The notes under the pieces are model-generated. The model was not told where the DNA came from. It worked only from the letters and a program-made list of their open reading frames with translations, and ran no database searches. The translations under genes were made by a program, and so were the position numbers. A stretch of 64,000 nucleotides of DNA from Octopus sinensis (taxonomy: Eukaryota), in NCBI RefSeq assembly GCF_006345805.1, contig NC_043025.1, forward strand, positions 15,004,001 to 15,068,000. Reading direction: 5' to 3'. Shown here piece by piece: positions 7,729 through 57,805 of this stretch; position 1 is the first letter of the stretch; the number at the start of each line of letters is the position of its first letter.

Positions 7729-8945
7729 CATCATCATCATCATCATTGTTTGACCGTGGTTGAGACAATGGAATTTACCATGCTACGCCAGACTTCACGG
7801 TCCATCATGGCATTACGGAGGTCCTGTTGCTGGATGCCTGTATCCCTGGAGATTACATCAGGGCAGGAGAGTGTGTGCCCTCTGGTATTGCGAGTAGATG
7901 GCTTCCAGAGGAGAAGAGTAGAAATTACCTCTTTTTCAGCTCTACAACAATGTCCAGCAAACTGGACTCTCCTACCTTTCACAAGAGATGACACAGGTGG
8001 TAGTTTCCCATATATTTGCATTTTGGTTGGATGGCGCTTCCACGAGAGATTTTGAGCTCTCATAAGGAGGCGAGTGTAGGTTCCATCCAACCGCCTCTCA
8101 AGCTTCTTTGATAACGTCCAGGCTTCTGAGCCATATAGTAGAATTGGTTCGACTGTGACTTTGAAGATTTCAAGTTTGAAGTCTCTACTTAGATTTGATG
8201 ACCAGATCTTATGCATGTCATTACAGGCTGACCAGGCCATACCCTTTCTAGTTAGAAAGTCTTTTCCAGATGATGATATGTATGACCCAAGATATTTATA
8301 ATCAGAAACCATATTTAAGGGCGCATTGTTGAGAGTATGGATGATGCAATCACTGTTGGACAGGCACTTGTTTATGTATTCAGTTTTGGCCTCATTGAGG
8401 TAAAGACCTACACAATTTGAGGCTTGTTCAAGAGATTGTAAAAGAGACTGGGCATTGGAGAGAGAATCACTGATAAGAGCGATGTCGTCAGCAAAGTCAG
8501 TGTCTGTCAAGTACTCAGCTGGGTGTCTGGAACTTCTTCTTGGTTTTATTTCAAAGCCCTTGCCAGAGATGGTATCAACTGACATACGTAGCACATAATC
8601 AACAACAATGATGAAAAGAAATGGGGCGAGTGTGTCTCCCTGCAGTATTCCGGCTTTGATTGAGAAAGATGATGTTTCTCCGTCAGGGGTTAAGATGGTT
8701 GAAGACGTATCTGTGTAGAGGACCTTGATGGCAGAAATGATTTTGTCTGGTATCCCATAGAGCTTAAGGATTTCAAACATCTTGCACCTATCTACAGAAT
8801 CGAACGCTTTAGAAAAGTCTACAAATACCATTGCAAGATTGCGATTAAATGCTTTTGATTCTTCAATAAGTCTGCATAGGCATAGTATCTGGCTCAGCGT
8901 TGAGCGCCCATGTCTGAATCCATTTTGCTCAAAGACTTCTTGGAG
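7729..8945 (-). mobile_element. 5'-truncated RTE-clade LINE family 2 with ~400-codon uninterrupted RT/C-terminal frame
   Basis: ORF 7743-8978: QNGFR, FVDFSKAFDSV, GILQGDTLAPFLF, FADDIAL, YKYLGS, PILLYGSEAW; (TGA)n tail; N-terminal residues of the listed ORF come from flank. Confidence 0.95.
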
Positions 8946-9528
8946 GAATACATCACATACATATGTATACATATACATATGTATGGCATGGGCAAATGTT
9001 TTCTGTTAGAGCCCTGGGGACAACAAATGCCTTTTAAAGGAGTCACTAAGCAAAAACTGAAGGACGGTCTCTCTGTCTGACTCTTTCTCTGTCTATCCAT
9101 CCATCCATTATCTCACTCTCTCTCTCTCTGTCTCCATCTCCCTCTCTTTCTCCATCCATCTCCTTCCTCCCTCCCTCTCTCTCTATCTCTCTGTCTCTGT
9201 CTGTCTGTCTCTCTATGTCTCTGTCTCTCTCTGTGTTTCTCTCTCCCTCTCAACCTCACCCAGGGGGTCTCTGTGTTCACGACTCCCCCCCCCCACCGAA
9301 TCCCTCTCCCAATATCAGCTGACATCCTGTGTTCACACTGATATCATACAATATCCATATGTTATCACAGCACCCTCTTATAACCTTTACACATTCTCAG
9401 ATATCCTTCTTGCCCTGCCTATCTATTCGCGTTCAACATCTTTCTTTTCTCATTTTGCAGTTTCTTGCTTTTTTCCTTCTGTTTTGGAACCATTTTCTTA
9501 TTTGAAAGAAAGCTTTTTGTCCAGATGC

Positions 9529-10547: not shown

Positions 10548-12760
10548 AAGGCCTGGAAAGCCTGGAGGTAGCAGGGAACTGTACCAGGTAGCCAAAAGGG
10601 AGGCTGGGCAGCAGTTATACATATTTGATGAGAGGGAGGAGGAGCTACAGACGTCGGACATAGAAGGTAGCTGGAAATTCCTATGGAACAGCTTGCTGAG
10701 TGCCACAGACCAAGTCTGCAGATGGTGCAAAGTCCCTTCCAGACCTAAAGTTATGTGGTGGTGGAATAGTACAGTAGACAAAGCCATTAGAGCAAAGAAA
10801 CAGGCCTGGAAAGCCTGGAGGTAGCAGGGAACTGTACCAGGTAGCCAAAAGGGAGGCTGGGCAGCAGTTATACATAGCCAAGAGTGAAGCAGAAAAGAAG
10901 AAGTTTGCCAATGTCCAGAGACGTGAGGACCAAAGAACTGAGGTATTTCGGATTGCAAGACAGTGTGTGAGAGAAAATTGTGATGTCACAGGAGAGAAAT
11001 GTGTCTGCATGGATGATGGTGCACTTGCTTTTAATGATTCTGAAAAGAAAGAGGCTTGGAGAAGCCATTATGAAAGACTGCTGAACGTGGAGAATAAATG
11101 GGAGGAGGAGAGCCTGCCAAATGTTGACCCTTAGAGGGACCAGCTATTTGAATAGACAACTCCCTGGTAGATAAAGCAATTAAAGGTATGAAGCCAGGAA
11201 AAGCCCCCGTGCCTATCAGGAATCACTGCTGAGATGCTTAAAACATCTGGTGGTGTGGGCGATGGCCTAGTCACCCGCATTGTAAACCAAGTAGTTCATG
11301 ATGGAGTCATACCCAATGACTGGCGTAGCAGCACCATAGTCAACTGCTACAAAAGTAGATGGGATGCAGTTTGGTTATGTGCCAGGTAGAAGCACCACTG
11401 ATGCCATATTCTTGGTGCAGCAACTGCAAGAGAAATACCTAGCTAAAGATAAACCCCTATACTTAGCTTTGTGGACTTGGAGAAAGCCTTTGACAGGCTC
11501 CCCCAATCCCTTATCTGGAGGGCAATGTGGAATCTGGGAATTAAAGAATGGTTAATAAGGGCTGTACAGGCCCTTTACAGAAAGGCCATTAGTAAGGTTA
11601 GGATTGGCAATGAGTATAGTAAAGAATTCTGGGTAGAATTAGGGGTCCACCAAGGATCATCCTCAGTCCCCTTTTATTCATCATAGTCCTCCAGGCAATA
11701 ACAGAGGAATTCAAGATGGGTTACCCCTGGGAGCTCCTCTATGCACTACCAGAGATAGAAAAGAAAATTTGTGTGTGGAATCTAGGTTTAGAATCAAAAG
11801 GCCTTAGAGTCAATGTAGCAAAGACCAAAGTTATAGTAAGTAGGAAGGCGAACTCATCACACACCCCTTCAGGTAGCTGGCCCTGCTTGATCTGTAGAAA
11901 AGGTGTCGGTAGAAACTCCATAAGATGTACCCAGTGTAAGCTATGGACACATAAGAGGTGCAGCAATATCAAAGGAAGGTTAACCAGGAAGATAGCTTTC
12001 TTGTGTGGCAGATGCAAAGCGACAGTAAACACCACAGATGCTCAAAAAGCAGATTCCATCACATTCCAGGGGGAGAAACTAGAAGTAGTTCATAGCTTCT
12101 GCTACATAAGTGACCAAGTTAGTAGTGGGGGTGGATGCTCAGAGAGTGTCACCACTAGAATCTGGGGTAGAAGTAGACCCAGGAAGACATGGGATGAGGT
12201 GGTGAAGCATGACCTTTGAACATTGGGTCTCACAGAGGCAACGATCAAAGACCAACACCTCTGGAGATATGCTGTGACTGTGAAGACCTGGCAAATAAAG
12301 TGAGTTCATGGCTGTTTCTTGCACCAGTTTTGCATATCCAACCCCAGCCCATTCAAAAGTACCTTGGATCGTAGGGCAACCTGCTGTGCTTGAGGAGATA
12401 TATTGAGTCAAGTACATCAACATCAAAATGAAAATCAAATGGAAATTGTAGTTGTGATACCCGTGCTGGTGGCATGTAAAAAGCACCGTCCGAATGTGGC
12501 CGATGCCAGCGCCGCCTTGACTGGCTTCCATAAAAGGCACCAACCAATCATGGCTGTTGCCAGTCTCCTCCGGCCCCTGTGCCGGTGGCATGTAAAAAGC
12601 ACCCACTACACTCCCCGAGTGGTTGGCATTAGGAAGGGCATCCAGCTGTAGAAACACTGCCAAATCAGACTGGAGCCTGGTGCAGCCCCTGGCTTCCCAG
12701 ACCCTGGTTGAACCGTCCAACCCATGCTAGCACGGAAAGCGGATGTTAAACGATGATGAT
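10548..12760 (+). mobile_element. RTE-clade LINE family 1, 5'-truncated, frameshifted, internally deleted
   Basis: MQFGYVPGRSTTDAIF, DLEKAFDR, GVHQGS, WPCLICRKG..CTQC..HKRC, GRSRPRKTWDEVV; 3' UTR ending ggatgttaaacgatgatgat. Confidence 0.9.
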
Positions 12761-28293: not shown

Positions 28294-28818
28294 ATATATA
28301 TATTATATATATATATATATATATTTATACACATACACATATGTATATATATATATATATCTCTAAGTGTATATATATATATATATATATATATAAATAT
28401 CTATCGATGTGTATATAGGTATTTATAACGTATGCATCTATGTGGATATATGTATATATATATGTGTTTACACATTTATGTGTATATCAGTGAGTGTGTG
28501 TGTGTATATAGATACAAATAGATATATATATATATATGTATGTGTGTATATATATATATTTACACACATACATGATATATATATATATACATATATATAA
28601 TATATATATATACATACATATATATATATATATATATATTAATATATAAAATAATAGTTATCGCCATACTAATATGGCATTCTTATAAAAATAAGAAAAA
28701 AGCTGTCCGCTTATTAGCTCCATGAGGCCATCGCCTTAAGTTAGCTATTTGATACACAAACTGTATCCATATAACCTTCGAACAAGGGAGGTCAGTCGCT
28801 CACAACTACTGACCGGCT

Positions 28819-28860
28819 GCTACAGACGCGTTTCGGGTATTGCCCCCTTTTCAATGCAGC
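28819..28860 (-). ncRNA. Minimal type I HHR, U3-A8 core variant
   Basis: Inverted copy of 29217-29257. Confidence 0.6.
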
Positions 28861-29216
28861 GTAGCCAGCCAGTAGGTGTCGCTTCCGACAATCTCTGTTC
28901 GATGATTTTATTTACCTATTTTCGGTGGAATACATCCACTTGTTTTCAATAATAGAAATATTAAAATAACTAAGTCTCTCTAAAAGAGAACATGGAGCTA
29001 ATAAGCGGACAGCTTTTTTCTTATTTTTATAAGAATGCCATTTAGTATGGCGATAACTATTATTTTCCGGGAACGCTGCCGCTGTTCTCTTTTAGAGAGA
29101 CTTAGTTATTTTAATATTTCTATTATTGAAAACAAGTGGATGTATTCCACCGAAACTAGGTAAATAAAATCATCGAACAGAGATTGTCGGAAGCGACACC
29201 TACTACCTGCTGCTAC

Positions 29217-29257
29217 GCTGCATTGAAAAGGGCAATACCCCGAAACGCGTCTGTAGC
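29217..29257 (+). ncRNA. Minimal type I HHR, U3-A8 core variant
   Basis: GCTGCA-TTGAAAA-GGGcaatacCCC-GAAA-CGCG-TC-TGTAGC. Confidence 0.65.
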
Positions 29258-29552
29258 AGCCGGTCAAGTAGTGTGGAGCGCTGACCTCCCTTTTCGAAGG
29301 TTATATGGATACAGTTGTGTATCAATAGCTATTAAGGCGATGGCCTCATGGAGCTAATAAGCGGACAGCTTTTTTCTTATTTTTATAAGATGCCATATTA
29401 GTATGGCGATACTATTATTTTCCGGAACGCTGCCGCTGTTCTCTTTTAGAGAGACTTAGTTATTTTAATATTTCTATTATATATATATATAAATATATAT
29501 ATATATAATATATATATGTATATATTATATTATATATATGACATATGTATGT

Positions 29553-29586
<34 letters not shown>

Positions 29587-29636
29587 ATATATATATAATA
29601 TATATAGTATATATATATATATATAATACATATGTA

Positions 29637-29704
<68 letters not shown>

Positions 29705-31537: not shown

Positions 31538-31580
31538 CCACTACAATCGTTTCTTGTCTTGATCGACAATCTTCAGGTGG
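31538..31580 (-). ncRNA. Minimal type I hammerhead ribozyme
   Basis: Minus: CCAC-CTGAAGA-TTGTCgatcaaGACAA-GAAA-CGATTG-TA-GTGG. Confidence 0.75.
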
Positions 31581-32293
31581 ACTTCCAATCTAAAAAATCA
31601 AAATTTAAAAAAATAAAAAATAATAATTTTAAATAATTAAAGTATAAATGAAAAAATATAATAGTATATAATCCAATATAACCTATATATAATCCATATC
31701 GAAATATAGACAAATTACCACGAATTCCCCTAAAAAAAACCATGATAAAACAAACTCATAAAAACATATAACGATAAAACTCCCTTTGCTAAACTCTATA
31801 ACAAACCTATAAAGTAATCCCCCTAACCTAAACATTCACACACAAATACACACACGTAAACCACAGACTCACGACTTATTGTTGAATGTGTATATGGGTT
31901 TGTTATTTAGGTTTGGGATGTATGTGTTAATTTGTCTGTGTGGGGAGGGAGGGGTTTTGGTGTTTTTGAGGTTTATAAGTTAGTATAGGTATGTGTATAA
32001 TCGTGAGTCTGTGTTTACGTGTGTGTATTTGTGTGTGAATGTTAGGTTAGGGGGATTACTTTATAGGTTTGTTATAGAGTTTTAGCAAAGGGAGATTTTA
32101 TCGTTATATGTTTTTATGAGTTTTGTTTTATCATGGTTTTTTTTAGGGAATTCGTGGTAATTTGTCTATTTTTCGATATGGTTATATATAATGTTATATT
32201 TGGATTATATACTTATATTTTTTCATTTATACTTTAATTATTTAAAATTATTATTTTTTTATTTTTAAAATTTTGATTTTTTAGATTGGAAGT

Positions 32294-32335
32294 CCACCTG
32301 AAGATTGTCGATCAGACAAGAAACGATTGTAGTGG
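32294..32335 (+). ncRNA. Minimal type I hammerhead ribozyme
   Basis: CCAC-CTGAAGA-TTGTCgatcaGACAA-GAAA-CGATTG-TA-GTGG; canonical core, all stems pair. Confidence 0.75.
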
Positions 32336-32847: not shown

Positions 32848-33414
32848 TTCAAAGTACCCTGGATCCCAGAACGTCCCGCTGTGCTTGAAGAGATCTGTTG
32901 AGTCAAGTACATGAACATGAACATCGAAATAAATATCAATGGAAATAGTAGTTGTGATACCTGTGCCGGTGGTACATAAAAAGCACCATCTGAACGTGGC
33001 CAATGCCAGCCCTGCCCCGAATGGCTTTTGTGGCGAAGGCACATAAAAAGCACCATCCGAACGTGGCCGATGCCAGCACCGCCCTGACTGGTTTTTGTGC
33101 CGGTGGCACATAAAAAGCACCATCCGAACGTGGCCGTTGCCAGCTCCGCCTTGACTGGCTTCCGTGTCGGTGGCACGTTAAAAATCCAACCGATCGTGGC
33201 CGATGCCGGACCCTCCTGGCACCTGTGCAGGTGGCACGTAAAAGCACCCACTACACTCGCGGAGTGGTTGGCGTTAGGAAGGGCATCCAGCTGTAGAAAC
33301 TCTGCCAGATCAGACTGGAGCCTGGTGCAGCCCCTGGCTTCCCAGACCCCGGTCGAACCGTCCAACCCATGCTAGCGCGGAAAACGGACGTTAAACGATG
33401 ATGATGATGATGAT
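32848..33414 (+). mobile_element. RTE family 1 3' UTR fragment with ~65-bp subrepeats
   Basis: Matches 12350-12760; aaaagcaccatccgaacgtggcc repeated; (GAT)n tail. Confidence 0.85.
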
Positions 33415-47688: not shown

Positions 47689-47960
47689 CATCATCATCAT
47701 CATCATCATCGTTTAACGTCCGCTTTCCGCGCTAGCACGGGTTGGACGGTTTGACCGGGTCTGGGAAGCCAGGGGCCGCTCCAGGCTCCAGTCTGAATCT
47801 GGCAGAGTTTCTACGGCTGGATGCCCTTCCTAACGCCAACCACTCCGTGAGTGGATTGGGTGCTTTTTACGTGCCACCTGCACAGGGGCCGGAGGGTCCG
47901 GCATCGTCACGATCGGATTCGAGCATTTTAACGTGTCAGCGGCACGGGGGCAACGAGGTC
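47689..47960 (-). mobile_element. RTE family 1-type 3' tail
   Basis: Reverse-complement match to 33220-33414; followed by ~20-bp and ~35-bp minisatellites to 48400. Confidence 0.85.
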
Positions 47961-48414
47961 CGGGGTACTTTGGGGATTGGGGTATTTTGGGGATCCGGGG
48001 TACTTTGGGGATCCGGGGTACTTTGGGGATCCGGGGTACTTAGAATGGGTAGGGGGGTACTTAGAATGGGTAGGGGGGTACTTAGAATGGGTAGGTGACG
48101 AGGCGGGAGGGTACTAAAAGGGGATGGTCGGATTGAGGCAGTGTCAGGAGGAAGCGTAAGATCGGTGGGCAGTTGAGCTATGGCGCTAGCAGCTTGTCTT
48201 AAGCATATGAGGAGAAGTGGTAGTGGGAGGAGGAGGAGGGAGTAGGGCGTACGTACCAGTGTAGATGAGTAAGGTGTATCCGGTGTAGATAGAGAGAACG
48301 GGGTATACTGGTATTGGTGGTGGGGGGGTGAGAACAGTGTTCAACGGTATTGGTGGTGGGGGTGAGAACAGTGTTCAACGGTATTGGTGGTGGGGGTGGG
48401 GGGCGGGCGGGCGC

Positions 48415-54752: not shown

Positions 54753-54984
54753 TATTTATATATAAAAGAAAGGTTGTGTGTCTCTCTACTCCGATTTAGA
54801 TTCCTAACTACTCCCACATTTTGCAATGCAGTTTAACCAAAACCGGGTATCTTATAGTCGTGATTCATATCGAGCCCTTCTGGGTATTAGCGCGCGTCTA
54901 CGATGAGTCTATGATTTTACAAATAATTTACCATCATTTTTTTCCATTTTAATGCATATTTTTTTAAATAAAGGGAAGTAACTC

Positions 54985-55495
54985 TCAAACTTCACACCAA
55001 TATGCGTGCTCATATGCGACGTAATATCACATCAGCAGCATTTCCTCACACCCTCCTTGCACTTGGCGAAGGCAAAATACCAGGGGATGAAAATGGTAAT
55101 ATTGCCATCGATTCCATTTGTACCATTGTTAAGACGCCTTCTGATCTCAGAGATGCAGTGTTCCCAGATCTACAAGCTAATTATCAGAATATGGATTGGA
55201 TTGGCAAAAAGGCTATACTGGCCCCGAGGAATAAAACTGTTCACCATATTAATGATGAAATGCTAAAACTCATTCCTGGGGAAGTCTATGTATATCAGTC
55301 TATCGATACAGCTCCTGACCCAGAGGACGTGATCAACTATCCAATAGAGGTACTCAATTCCTTTGAGCACCCCGGACTACCACCACACTTTCTCAAACTT
55401 AAAGTTGGTGCCCCTATAATGCTCATCAGAAATTTGGTTCCCCCAAAACAATGCAATGGCACACGTTTTATCGTTAAGTCCTTATCTCCCACTGT
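54985..55495 (+). pseudogene. Helitron RepHel Pif1-family helicase fragment, open frame
   Basis: LHTNMR, KAILAPRN, GLPPHFLKLKVGAPIMLIRNL, CNGTRFIV. Confidence 0.9.
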
Positions 55496-55729
55496 AAACT
55501 TATATCAATATTTGCCTGAATAATCATCATAATTCAGTGCAATCATTAACAGTACTTTCAAGCAATTCAGCCCCGAGCAACGCCGGGCAATTCTGCTAGT
55601 TTATATATATATATATATATATTATAAGATCAGCAACAATTTAGATTCAAATGAATATGGTACTTAATTTAGATGCACCAGAATTTTGTATGGTGTTACC
55701 CATAAAAATATGCGGGGTGATTATAATAA

Positions 55730-55985
55730 AAAAATAAGCAACAAGAATGAATCTGGTAATTTAGTACAATTGTTTCATACTACAACATTTTATTAAAAGC
55801 TCTAAATATTCCCTAAAAAGTTATTAATTGATTTTAAAACTTTTATATTATTGGAAAACCTACATAAATTAGCTGAAGATTACTCAGCATCTTAAATCTG
55901 CTGTAATATTTACAGCTTTTAATAAAATGTTGTAGTATGAAACAATTGTACTAAATTACCGGATTCATTCTTGTTGCTTATTTTT
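55730..55985. repeat. ~72-bp-arm inverted repeat with HHR
   Basis: aaaaataagcaacaagaatgaatc...aaaagct / agctttt...gattcattcttgttgcttatttt. Confidence 0.9.
55869..55954 (+). ncRNA. Type I HHR with extended stem II
   Basis: TTAG-CTGAAGA-tTACTCAGCAT...ATGTTGtAGTAt-GAAA-CAATTG-TA-CTAA. Confidence 0.6.
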
Positions 55986-56691
55986 GTATATATATATATA
56001 TGTCAGTGGCGGCTGCAGCACTCAAGCTGTTCGGGCTTGGCCCAAGTATAAATTTAGTAAAGTGAACATATATTTGCAAGATGATTTAGTTTCTTCCAAT
56101 ACTGACTTCAAGTATATAATTGCAACCAATAACTCAGGCACCTTTTATTGAGCCTGATCACAGTTTCTTTATTTTCATTGAGTGTCTGGCGGTCATCTTA
56201 GAGGTGCCCTGTTTCGAAAAATATCATTCATAGAAGACGTCGTTCACACATGGGCCTGACTCAGGGCTCAGAAGTTACACCCTGAGTTGTTGTCTATAAT
56301 CGTAAAAATTAAAAGTAATTCAAATTCATGTTTTCTTGAAGCAATAAATCTCTATAGAGATTAGGATTTAAATTCCAATCTATGAGAAGTTTCCGTTCTA
56401 CAATATTCTCAAAGGAACAAAAAAAATTATGCAGCAACTTGGGCTAATACAAACGAGCCTGGTAGGGGTAAAAAATTAACTGGGGTCACTTGTCAAGAGC
56501 AAAAGTGACAGTAATATTGCTGTCGTTTGTTCTGAATTCCAACTGGATCTGGTCAAAGAGGCATGGAAGAGAATTTTAAGAATATTTTTTGATAAACTCT
56601 CTGGGTTATTTGTGATGCCTGTGAATGAAAAGACATTGAAATTTTATAACTTATTGGCAGGAGATTCAATTGTTATCATACTACTGGACAT

Positions 56692-56738
56692 CTGTCACTG
56701 ATGAACCCACAGCAGGGTGAAATTACATGATCTGACAG
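56692..56738 (+). ncRNA. Canonical type I hammerhead ribozyme
   Basis: CTGTCA-CTGATGA-ACCCacagcaGGGT-GAAA-TTacatGA-TC-TGACAG; stems of 6, 4 and 3 bp. Confidence 0.85.
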
Positions 56739-57036
56739 TTCTTGCTGCCATAGCAGATGATCCTCATCTGTCAACGATATAAATATGAGTGTTTTATGCA
56801 TCACAAGTCCATATGAGAGATTCCCTCGTGGTAAATAACACAGAATTGTCTGTTCTAACAAAACATCCTCATTAAGTTGGATATAAAGATTGCCATTTTG
56901 TATTAATAGTATTTCTGCCATTATTTATTACTTTTTGATTAGTCCACTGGCTAAATACTACACTGGTAGCTGAACAGATGCTGAGATTCTATACATCACT
57001 GATGGGAGATGCAACTGTTATTGTGCTGCAGGGCAC

Positions 57037-57083
57037 CTACCACTGATGAACCCATAGCAGAGTGAAATCATGAGATTTGGCAG
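57037..57083 (+). ncRNA. Second, decayed HHR copy 345 nt downstream
   Basis: CTACCA-CTGATGA-ACCCatagcaGAGT-GAAA-TCatgaGA-TT-TGGCAG. Confidence 0.7.
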
Positions 57084-57805
57084 TTCTGGTGGCCGTAGGA
57101 TAGCAACAATATAATGGCAATTGCCTTTATGCTCCATGCATCCATATGAGGCATCCTCAAAGCAAGTAACACAGTATTTGCTGTTCTAATACAACCTCTA
57201 TATTAAGTTGGAGATTAAGATTCCCTTTTTGGACTTCTACTGCTTCTGTCACTGTTAATCATTTTTCCAAAGGCATGATTTGCCTGTCAGTCAATTGGGG
57301 ATTCGAATGAATTGGTTACAACACTATGGTACCTTGGATCTGTGATACCTTAACCATCAAAGAGGGGCAGGACAAAAAAGGTGGGGGTCCAGTAGTTATG
57401 ACTGGGATGCAGTCTGGGGCCACTCCGTGTGTAAAGAATTAAGGGCCAAAACACTTGCATGAGAGGGACTGCTTCTCTGAAGACCCTCTCTTGATCAGCA
57501 CTCCTTACAGATTCTTACTGCTGTGTGTGTGTGTGTGTGTGTGTGTATACACACACACATATACATATATATAGGAATGTATTTGTGTATGTATGTATGT
57601 ATGCATATATGTGTGTGTGTGCATGTGTGTATATCTATCTATCTATCTATATGATATATTAGTAAAATTCAAATTCATATCTGAATATATATATATATAT
57701 ATATATACCTATATACATACATACAAGCATACATGCATTATCTTTTACTTACAACAATCATTAGACTGCAGCCATGCTGGGGCACTGTCTTGAAGATACT
57801 TGTTT

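Follow-up and report, generated by a model that had tools for sequence, protein, structure and literature searches.

The window analysed here, a stretch of 64,000 nt from the octopus Octopus sinensis, contains at positions 28648-29480 a short non-coding element that is flanked by (TA)n tracts on both sides (28575-28647 on the left and 29481-29700 on the right, read from the sequence with approximate bounds). Self-comparison resolves the element into two arms of opposite orientation. The forward stretch (28991-29480) comprises 490 nt or 1.38 units, and its beginning recurs at its end: positions 28991-29126 and 29347-29480 are identical in 133 of 137 alignment columns, with no substitution, four single-base gaps and a spacing of 356 nt. 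It is composed of a 76-nt 5'-truncated copy of the 3' end of the unit (28991-29066), which we read from the alignment as a pseudo-LTR (pLTR)-like piece after the account of Penelope-like elements (PLEs) in PMC8557442, one full unit (29067-29421), and a 59-nt tail of the PLE type (29422-29480), which repeats 29067-29126. The full unit is 355 nt long as assembled, with a G+C content of 41%, and is thus short, non-coding and low in G+C as retrozymes are. The inverted arm (28648-28992, reverse strand) is a 5'-truncated unit copy of 345 nt, which aligns to 29083-29421 with 331 matches, 3 substitutions and 13 gap events, ends without a tail at its 3' end at 28648, and folds as a whole at a z-score of -6.7. 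The inverted and forward arms, both 5'-truncated, meet with an overlap of 2 nt (28991-28992), which we infer to be a microhomology.

A first reading from sequence alone had proposed a forward stretch of about 1.4 units with its first 135 nt or so repeated, and the self-comparison bears this out. The inverted unit with different endpoints that it placed in front is likewise present, starting at 28648 and therefore 3 nt to the left of the proposed position 28651, and its 356-nt unit corresponds to the spacing in the assembly, while the unit of the family measures about 362 nt. The proposed lack of coding capacity also holds, since the longest stop-to-stop frame lying wholly within the element has 70 aa and none of the five longest such frames matches Pfam.

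No further copies of the element were found by self-comparison within the window, which harbors several other repeats and whose microsatellites and SINE-like sequences are reminiscent of octopus genomes. These include a tandem of 67-nt units at 32954-33243, with similar repeats in the frames 12139-12726 and 47736-48098, which probably represents a SINE-like family. An imperfect palindrome with 78% self-complementarity (55722-55994) lies amid (TA)n tracts, and the region 55622-55994 could be an inverted PLE-type stump or a MITE. Finally, two inverted arms of 109 nt, 94% complementary and 537 nt apart, are found at 31560-32314, and a weak hammerhead descriptor match on the reverse strand (31576-31542) overlaps the left one.

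The hammerhead ribozyme

A descriptor for type I hammerheads finds one match on each strand of the element, with U3 at 29223 and C17 at 29251 in the forward arm (29200-29271, with A8 at 29228 and G12 at 29242) and with U3 at 28854 and C17 at 28825 in the inverted arm (28806-28875, with G12 at 28834), and 3000 dinucleotide-shuffled versions of the 345-nt arm contain none. A z-score of -4.3 was obtained for the fold of the ribozyme region. As the sequence-only reading had it, the core is of the U3-A8 type, and the sequence agrees with the predicted cut after the GUC, 3' of C17 at 29251. Helix I consists of 6 bp that a bulge separates from a long outer stem, helix II has 4 bp in the family, and helix III is a short palindrome of the dimer type, two cores being computed to co-fold as a double hammerhead. 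Such a double hammerhead is the dimer form reported for metazoan type I motifs, and U3-A8 is a published variant among the PLE hammerheads of Schistosoma (PMC4209133). Rfam yields no hammerhead match at this site, either at gathering level or at E<=10, and no gathering-level match of any kind in the window. Weak Rfam matches to hairpin or miRNA families at the element were rejected as being caused by the inverted repeat.

Variants within the family at 29220 and 29254 preserve a helix I pair and N7 varies, while a variant at 29217, seen in one contig, disrupts a helix I pair. Position 29258 corresponds to nucleotide 1.7 of the ribozyme, which is A in both arms (28818 in the inverted one) and U in the family. 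In full-length hammerheads, an unpaired U1.7 contacts loop 2 and is rate-enhancing, though not essential (PMC11875169). An A at this position would pair, and the ribozymes at the locus may therefore be weaker than those of the family, whose retention of U at 1.7 is consistent with selection for the predicted cleavage.

The proposal of one ribozyme per unit applies to the full forward unit and to the inverted copy but not to the partial second forward unit, which ends before its ribozyme, so that the locus carries a single ribozyme per strand. Two consecutive units with complete hammerheads, by which Li et al. (2026) define an active copy, do not occur in it, and with only one ribozyme per strand the locus cannot excise a monomer. 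Cleavage would probably require the dimeric form of the ribozyme, as available in tandem source copies.

A second and older hammerhead tandem is present on the forward strand at 56626-57266, with two units about 345 nt apart that are 67% identical. It contains a canonical C3-G8 type I hammerhead (56698-56732; Rfam Hammerhead_HH9, 25.5 bits, E=3.6e-4, below gathering level) and a decayed twin of it near 57043, and is likely to represent a second retrozyme family. Kinship of this tandem with the element at 28648-29480 is not detectable, as 36 of 300 shuffles score equally well.

The family in public sequencing runs

The unit is present in public sequencing runs, with 20 entries from 9 studies under five organism labels; none of these holders of the unit is recorded as RNA. 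Contigs from four of the 24 runs listed, designated X1, X2, X16 and X17, were aligned to 29067-29421 (213, 2466, 18 and 31 contigs, with about 76% of X2 covered); these runs possibly derive from species other than that of the window, the best word share being 0.52. For X16 and X17 an RNA origin is no more than a guess, and 23-28% of their aligned material continues into unlike sequence, so both served for family anatomy rather than as evidence of expression. Summed contig depth is not taken as copy number, and it drops at places of probable error in the forward arm. All 12 joints listed (of 19), from three of the four runs, are head-to-tail joints from 29411 to 29067 or 29086, which by themselves are no proof of full dimers. 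Several X2 contigs (records 25, 27 and 28) span the tail end at 29126/29127 with at least 31 letters on each side, all 30 bins of the unit are covered in X1, and the share of material continuing into unlike sequence is 0.00 in X2 and 0.01 in X1, neither of which is suspected of being RNA. The joints, the bridged tail end and the low run-on therefore indicate a closed unit as the dominant form of the family. The length of this unit is calculated at about 362 nt from 12 of 26 indel entries and the letters at the joints, and the family to which the element belongs has many copies. No coding body departing from the unit was found among the contig entries listed. In X2, X16 and X17, a divergent subfamily is recognizable at 29086 and 29167, its letters being different where units join and on the upstream side of the ribozyme. 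Exact-pattern scans of metagenome contigs, viral contigs and prokaryote genomes gave no match, which is uninformative for an animal repeat.

The ends of the copies recur across these runs. A (TA)n tract follows position 29126, equivalent to the tail end at 29480, in all four runs (2, 34, 1 and 3 contigs), and position 29419 or thereabouts in one of them (two contigs of X17), which is the end at which the inverted arm joins its (TA)n tract at 28648. No other place followed by (TA)n appears among the 24 of 107 loose ends listed, a set outside which unique permuted ends, being of low depth, would fall. The two recurring 3' ends, equivalent to 29421 and 29480 and 59 nt apart, are thus the same two that are used at the locus, and both lie within the same 7-nt A+T-rich word that merges into (TA)n, which hints at priming by microhomology. 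The 5' ends vary: the locus has 28991 and the equivalent of 29083, and in X17 a further inversion junction lies at 29090.

Two letters are common to both arms and differ from the family: the A at 29258, where the family has T (788453 of 788536 in depth for X2 and the entire depth for X1, X16 and X17), and a T at 29170, where the family has C (437580 of 437845 in summed depth for X2 and similar proportions in the other three runs). To judge from these letters, a single template and a single insertion event would fit both arms; they may instead be letters of the species or of a subfamily, or may reflect conversion between the arms. Of 16 differences between the arms, 11 are cases where the family agrees with the inverted one; therefore, assembly errors are the probable cause of many gaps in the forward arm, and the insertion is likely to be young.

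Insertion mechanism and template

The identity of the element as a non-LTR retrozyme mobilized by a PLE, irrespective of the template, appears highly probable to us, and the sequence-only proposal of a retrozyme-like non-coding unit of reverse-transcriptional origin is supported. A partial tandem with a 5'-truncated pLTR piece, an inverted 5'-truncated copy, a (TA)n target, and two fixed 3' ends with an optional tail, although the 59 nt of the latter exceed the usual 30-40 bp, are all present. Together, a partial tandem, an inverted copy truncated at its 5' end, a one-ended tail and a bias for (TA)n make up the known layout of PLEs, among them Naiads without canonical hammerheads (PMC8557442), and coding PLEs have it too. 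No PLE-type open reading frame with reverse transcriptase (RT) and GIY-YIG domains was recognized by eye among the 81 window frames of at least 110 aa, five of which were scanned against Pfam, and three short words of the element had no match in the part of the PMC8557442 supplement that was available, where line breaks can hide matches. Elsewhere in the window, a 420-aa open frame on the reverse strand (7743-9005) contains an RVT_1 domain (E=3.6e-21) and looks by eye like a LINE-type RT, and a 183-aa forward frame with a Pif1 2B domain (54972-55523; E=1.3e-14) is possibly a Helitron remnant.

The course of events that we favor, with moderate confidence, is a single insertion of a many-copy non-coding retrozyme, mobilized by a PLE and copied from a non-circular template. 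To judge from the biochemistry of another PLE clade, the endonuclease would cut both strands of the (TA)n tract. One cDNA would then have started at the internal site 2 (the end at 29480), with 490 nt being copied, and the other at site 1 (the end at 28648), with 345 nt being copied, and the two 5'-truncated cDNAs would have been joined head to head via the 2-nt overlap. The 59-nt tail would correspond to the distance separating the two start sites. This sequence of steps follows the Poseidon element of the anole, whose protein cuts and extends both strands and which has two internal RT start sites at a spacing equal to the tail; hammerhead mutants of the anole element insert normally, and uncut RNA is its main substrate in vitro (PMC11167929). 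Most likely, the template would have been an uncut tandem transcript, or the RT would have jumped between templates, and a circle would not be required. The resulting locus, in which each strand has a single ribozyme and whose read-through RNA would form a hairpin of about 340 bp, is probably a dead end.

It had been proposed that the partial tandem and the inverted copy are the footprint of a circular RNA. This is not upheld, because a partial tandem with an inverted copy and a tail is the normal insertion layout of PLEs (PMC8557442), and the layout of the locus alone does not indicate copying from an RNA circle. Nor was the expected circular permutation of genomic copies found at the 3' ends, which are fixed at two sites among the 24 of 107 loose ends listed. 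A closed RNA circle of about 362 nt, excised from tandem copies by dimeric hammerheads and read by a PLE RT from fixed internal sites past one full turn, is nevertheless a possible template for the same element, if a distinctly less probable one. Both arms cross the cut site (29251 and 28825, respectively); therefore, the template was either a circle or an uncut tandem RNA, or the RT jumped, as a cleaved linear monomer would require. The repeated 135 nt without substitutions, the U at 1.7 retained in the family, and the agreement in size, G+C content and fold with known circle-forming retrozymes (PMC7229834) all suit a circle, on which fixed internal start sites would work as well. Moreover, this route has been proposed for PLE tandems by Cervera and de la Pena (PMC4209133), and the retrozymes of coral, mussel and axolotl do form circles, with PLEs proposed as their movers (PMC7229834). 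However, the same layout occurs in PLEs without canonical hammerheads (PMC8557442), the preferred use of uncut RNA by the anole protein (PMC11167929) speaks against a circle, the A at 1.7 in both arms may weaken cleavage and thus favor an uncut template, and only one of nine predicted Xenopus retrozymes cleaved in vitro (bioRxiv 10.64898/2026.07.22.740005). Contigs by their nature cannot reveal transcript ends, strand or circles. Only slightly less probable than such a circle is the wider scenario of a high-copy invertebrate family in which tertiary-stabilized dimeric U3-A8 hammerheads would release an abundant circle of about 362 nt, to be entered by a PLE RT at two fixed sites and read for more than one turn.

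Two further explanations deny either the independence of the element or its structure. The locus might be what a private deletion or truncation has left of the terminus of a long coding PLE, with no independent family of mini-elements behind it: a long PLE would give the same pLTR-to-tail joint, and in the anole PLE the hammerhead and the RT start sites lie at the junction between pLTR and open reading frame (PMC11167929). A rare coding parent could also sit among the 83 loose ends beyond the 24 of 107 listed. This explanation is already weakened by the contigs that bridge the tail end into the unit, by the 30 of 30 bins covered in X1, by the run-on of 0.00-0.01 in X1 and X2, and by the element having no open frame above 70 aa and no Pfam match, and we regard it as improbable. 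The contig entries listed give no sign that the element is the end of a long coding PLE. Slightly less probable again is that the inversion and the partial tandem are artefacts, produced around one repeat copy by the assembly or by the fold-back of a long read. The arm differences are mostly single-base gaps, typical of read errors in a hairpin, and the agreement of the family with the inverted arm in most of these events points the same way. Yet a fold-back read would mirror one flank, whereas the arms end at two different sites that are each joined to (TA)n in independent runs, and the tandem joint and another inversion junction are present in other runs. The insertion by a PLE from a non-circular template remains our preferred reading.

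Significance and comparison with known systems

Retrozymes have been found in many animals, and their origin as non-autonomous PLEs is already argued for in a preprint of 2026 (bioRxiv 10.64898/2026.07.22.740005). The full PLE signature on a non-coding unit adds independent anatomical support for PLE mobilization, which is a useful, if modest, contribution. In its ribozyme, the family also unites a U3-A8 core with U1.7 and a helix I of canonical form. No description of the family was found in the open-licence literature; an octopus annotation contains 190 Penelope-like families, and that of the element may be among them. An element of 360 nt would be suitable as a small substrate for deciding whether PLE tandems arise from circles, uncut multimers or template jumps. 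If a PLE RT does enter a circle at fixed sites, the insertions would record both the circle and the start sites, and would provide direct anatomical evidence for a mobilization of circles that has so far only been proposed.

Among the known systems, the metazoan non-LTR retrozymes (Cervera and de la Pena, 2020; PMC7229834) share with the element a non-coding unit of about 170-400 nt (350-390 bp in the mussel), a G+C content below 45%, a type I hammerhead and head-to-tail joints, and the short stem and palindromic loop of helix III resemble those of the axolotl HHR_Amex1. In contrast, their core is C3-G8 instead of U3-A8, and in place of a dimer or multimer the locus has 1.38 units and an inverted arm. 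Li, Clavereau and Pollet (2026; bioRxiv 10.64898/2026.07.22.740005) reach the same conclusion of retrozymes being tied to PLEs, but from co-occurrence and pLTR phylogeny, mostly in vertebrates, whereas the evidence presented here is the anatomy of an insertion with two fixed ends, a tail and an inversion.

The EN+ PLEs Neptune, Naiad, Hydra and Penelope/Poseidon (Craig et al., 2021, PMC8557442; Frangieh et al., 2024, PMC11167929) have in common with the element the partial tandem, the inverted 5'-truncated copy, the tail at one end, the (TA)n target and a hammerhead upstream of the 3' ends, while the element differs in having no RT/GIY-YIG open reading frame and a tail of 59 instead of 30-40 nt (PMC8557442). 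Priming by microhomology is suggested by its ends, whereas reverse transcription of the anole element begins without any homology (PMC11167929), and the hammerhead of Hydra-1_Obim, as listed in the PMC8557442 supplement, differs in sequence from that of the element. A parallel in the core is found in the hammerheads of the Schistosoma PLE Cercyon (PMC4209133), which show the same core covariation and a palindromic 15.2-16.2 region for dimerization. These are, however, minimal motifs with a long helix II and an ill-defined loop 1, whereas the element combines the same core with a canonical 6-bp helix I, a helix II of 4 bp in the family and a conserved U1.7.
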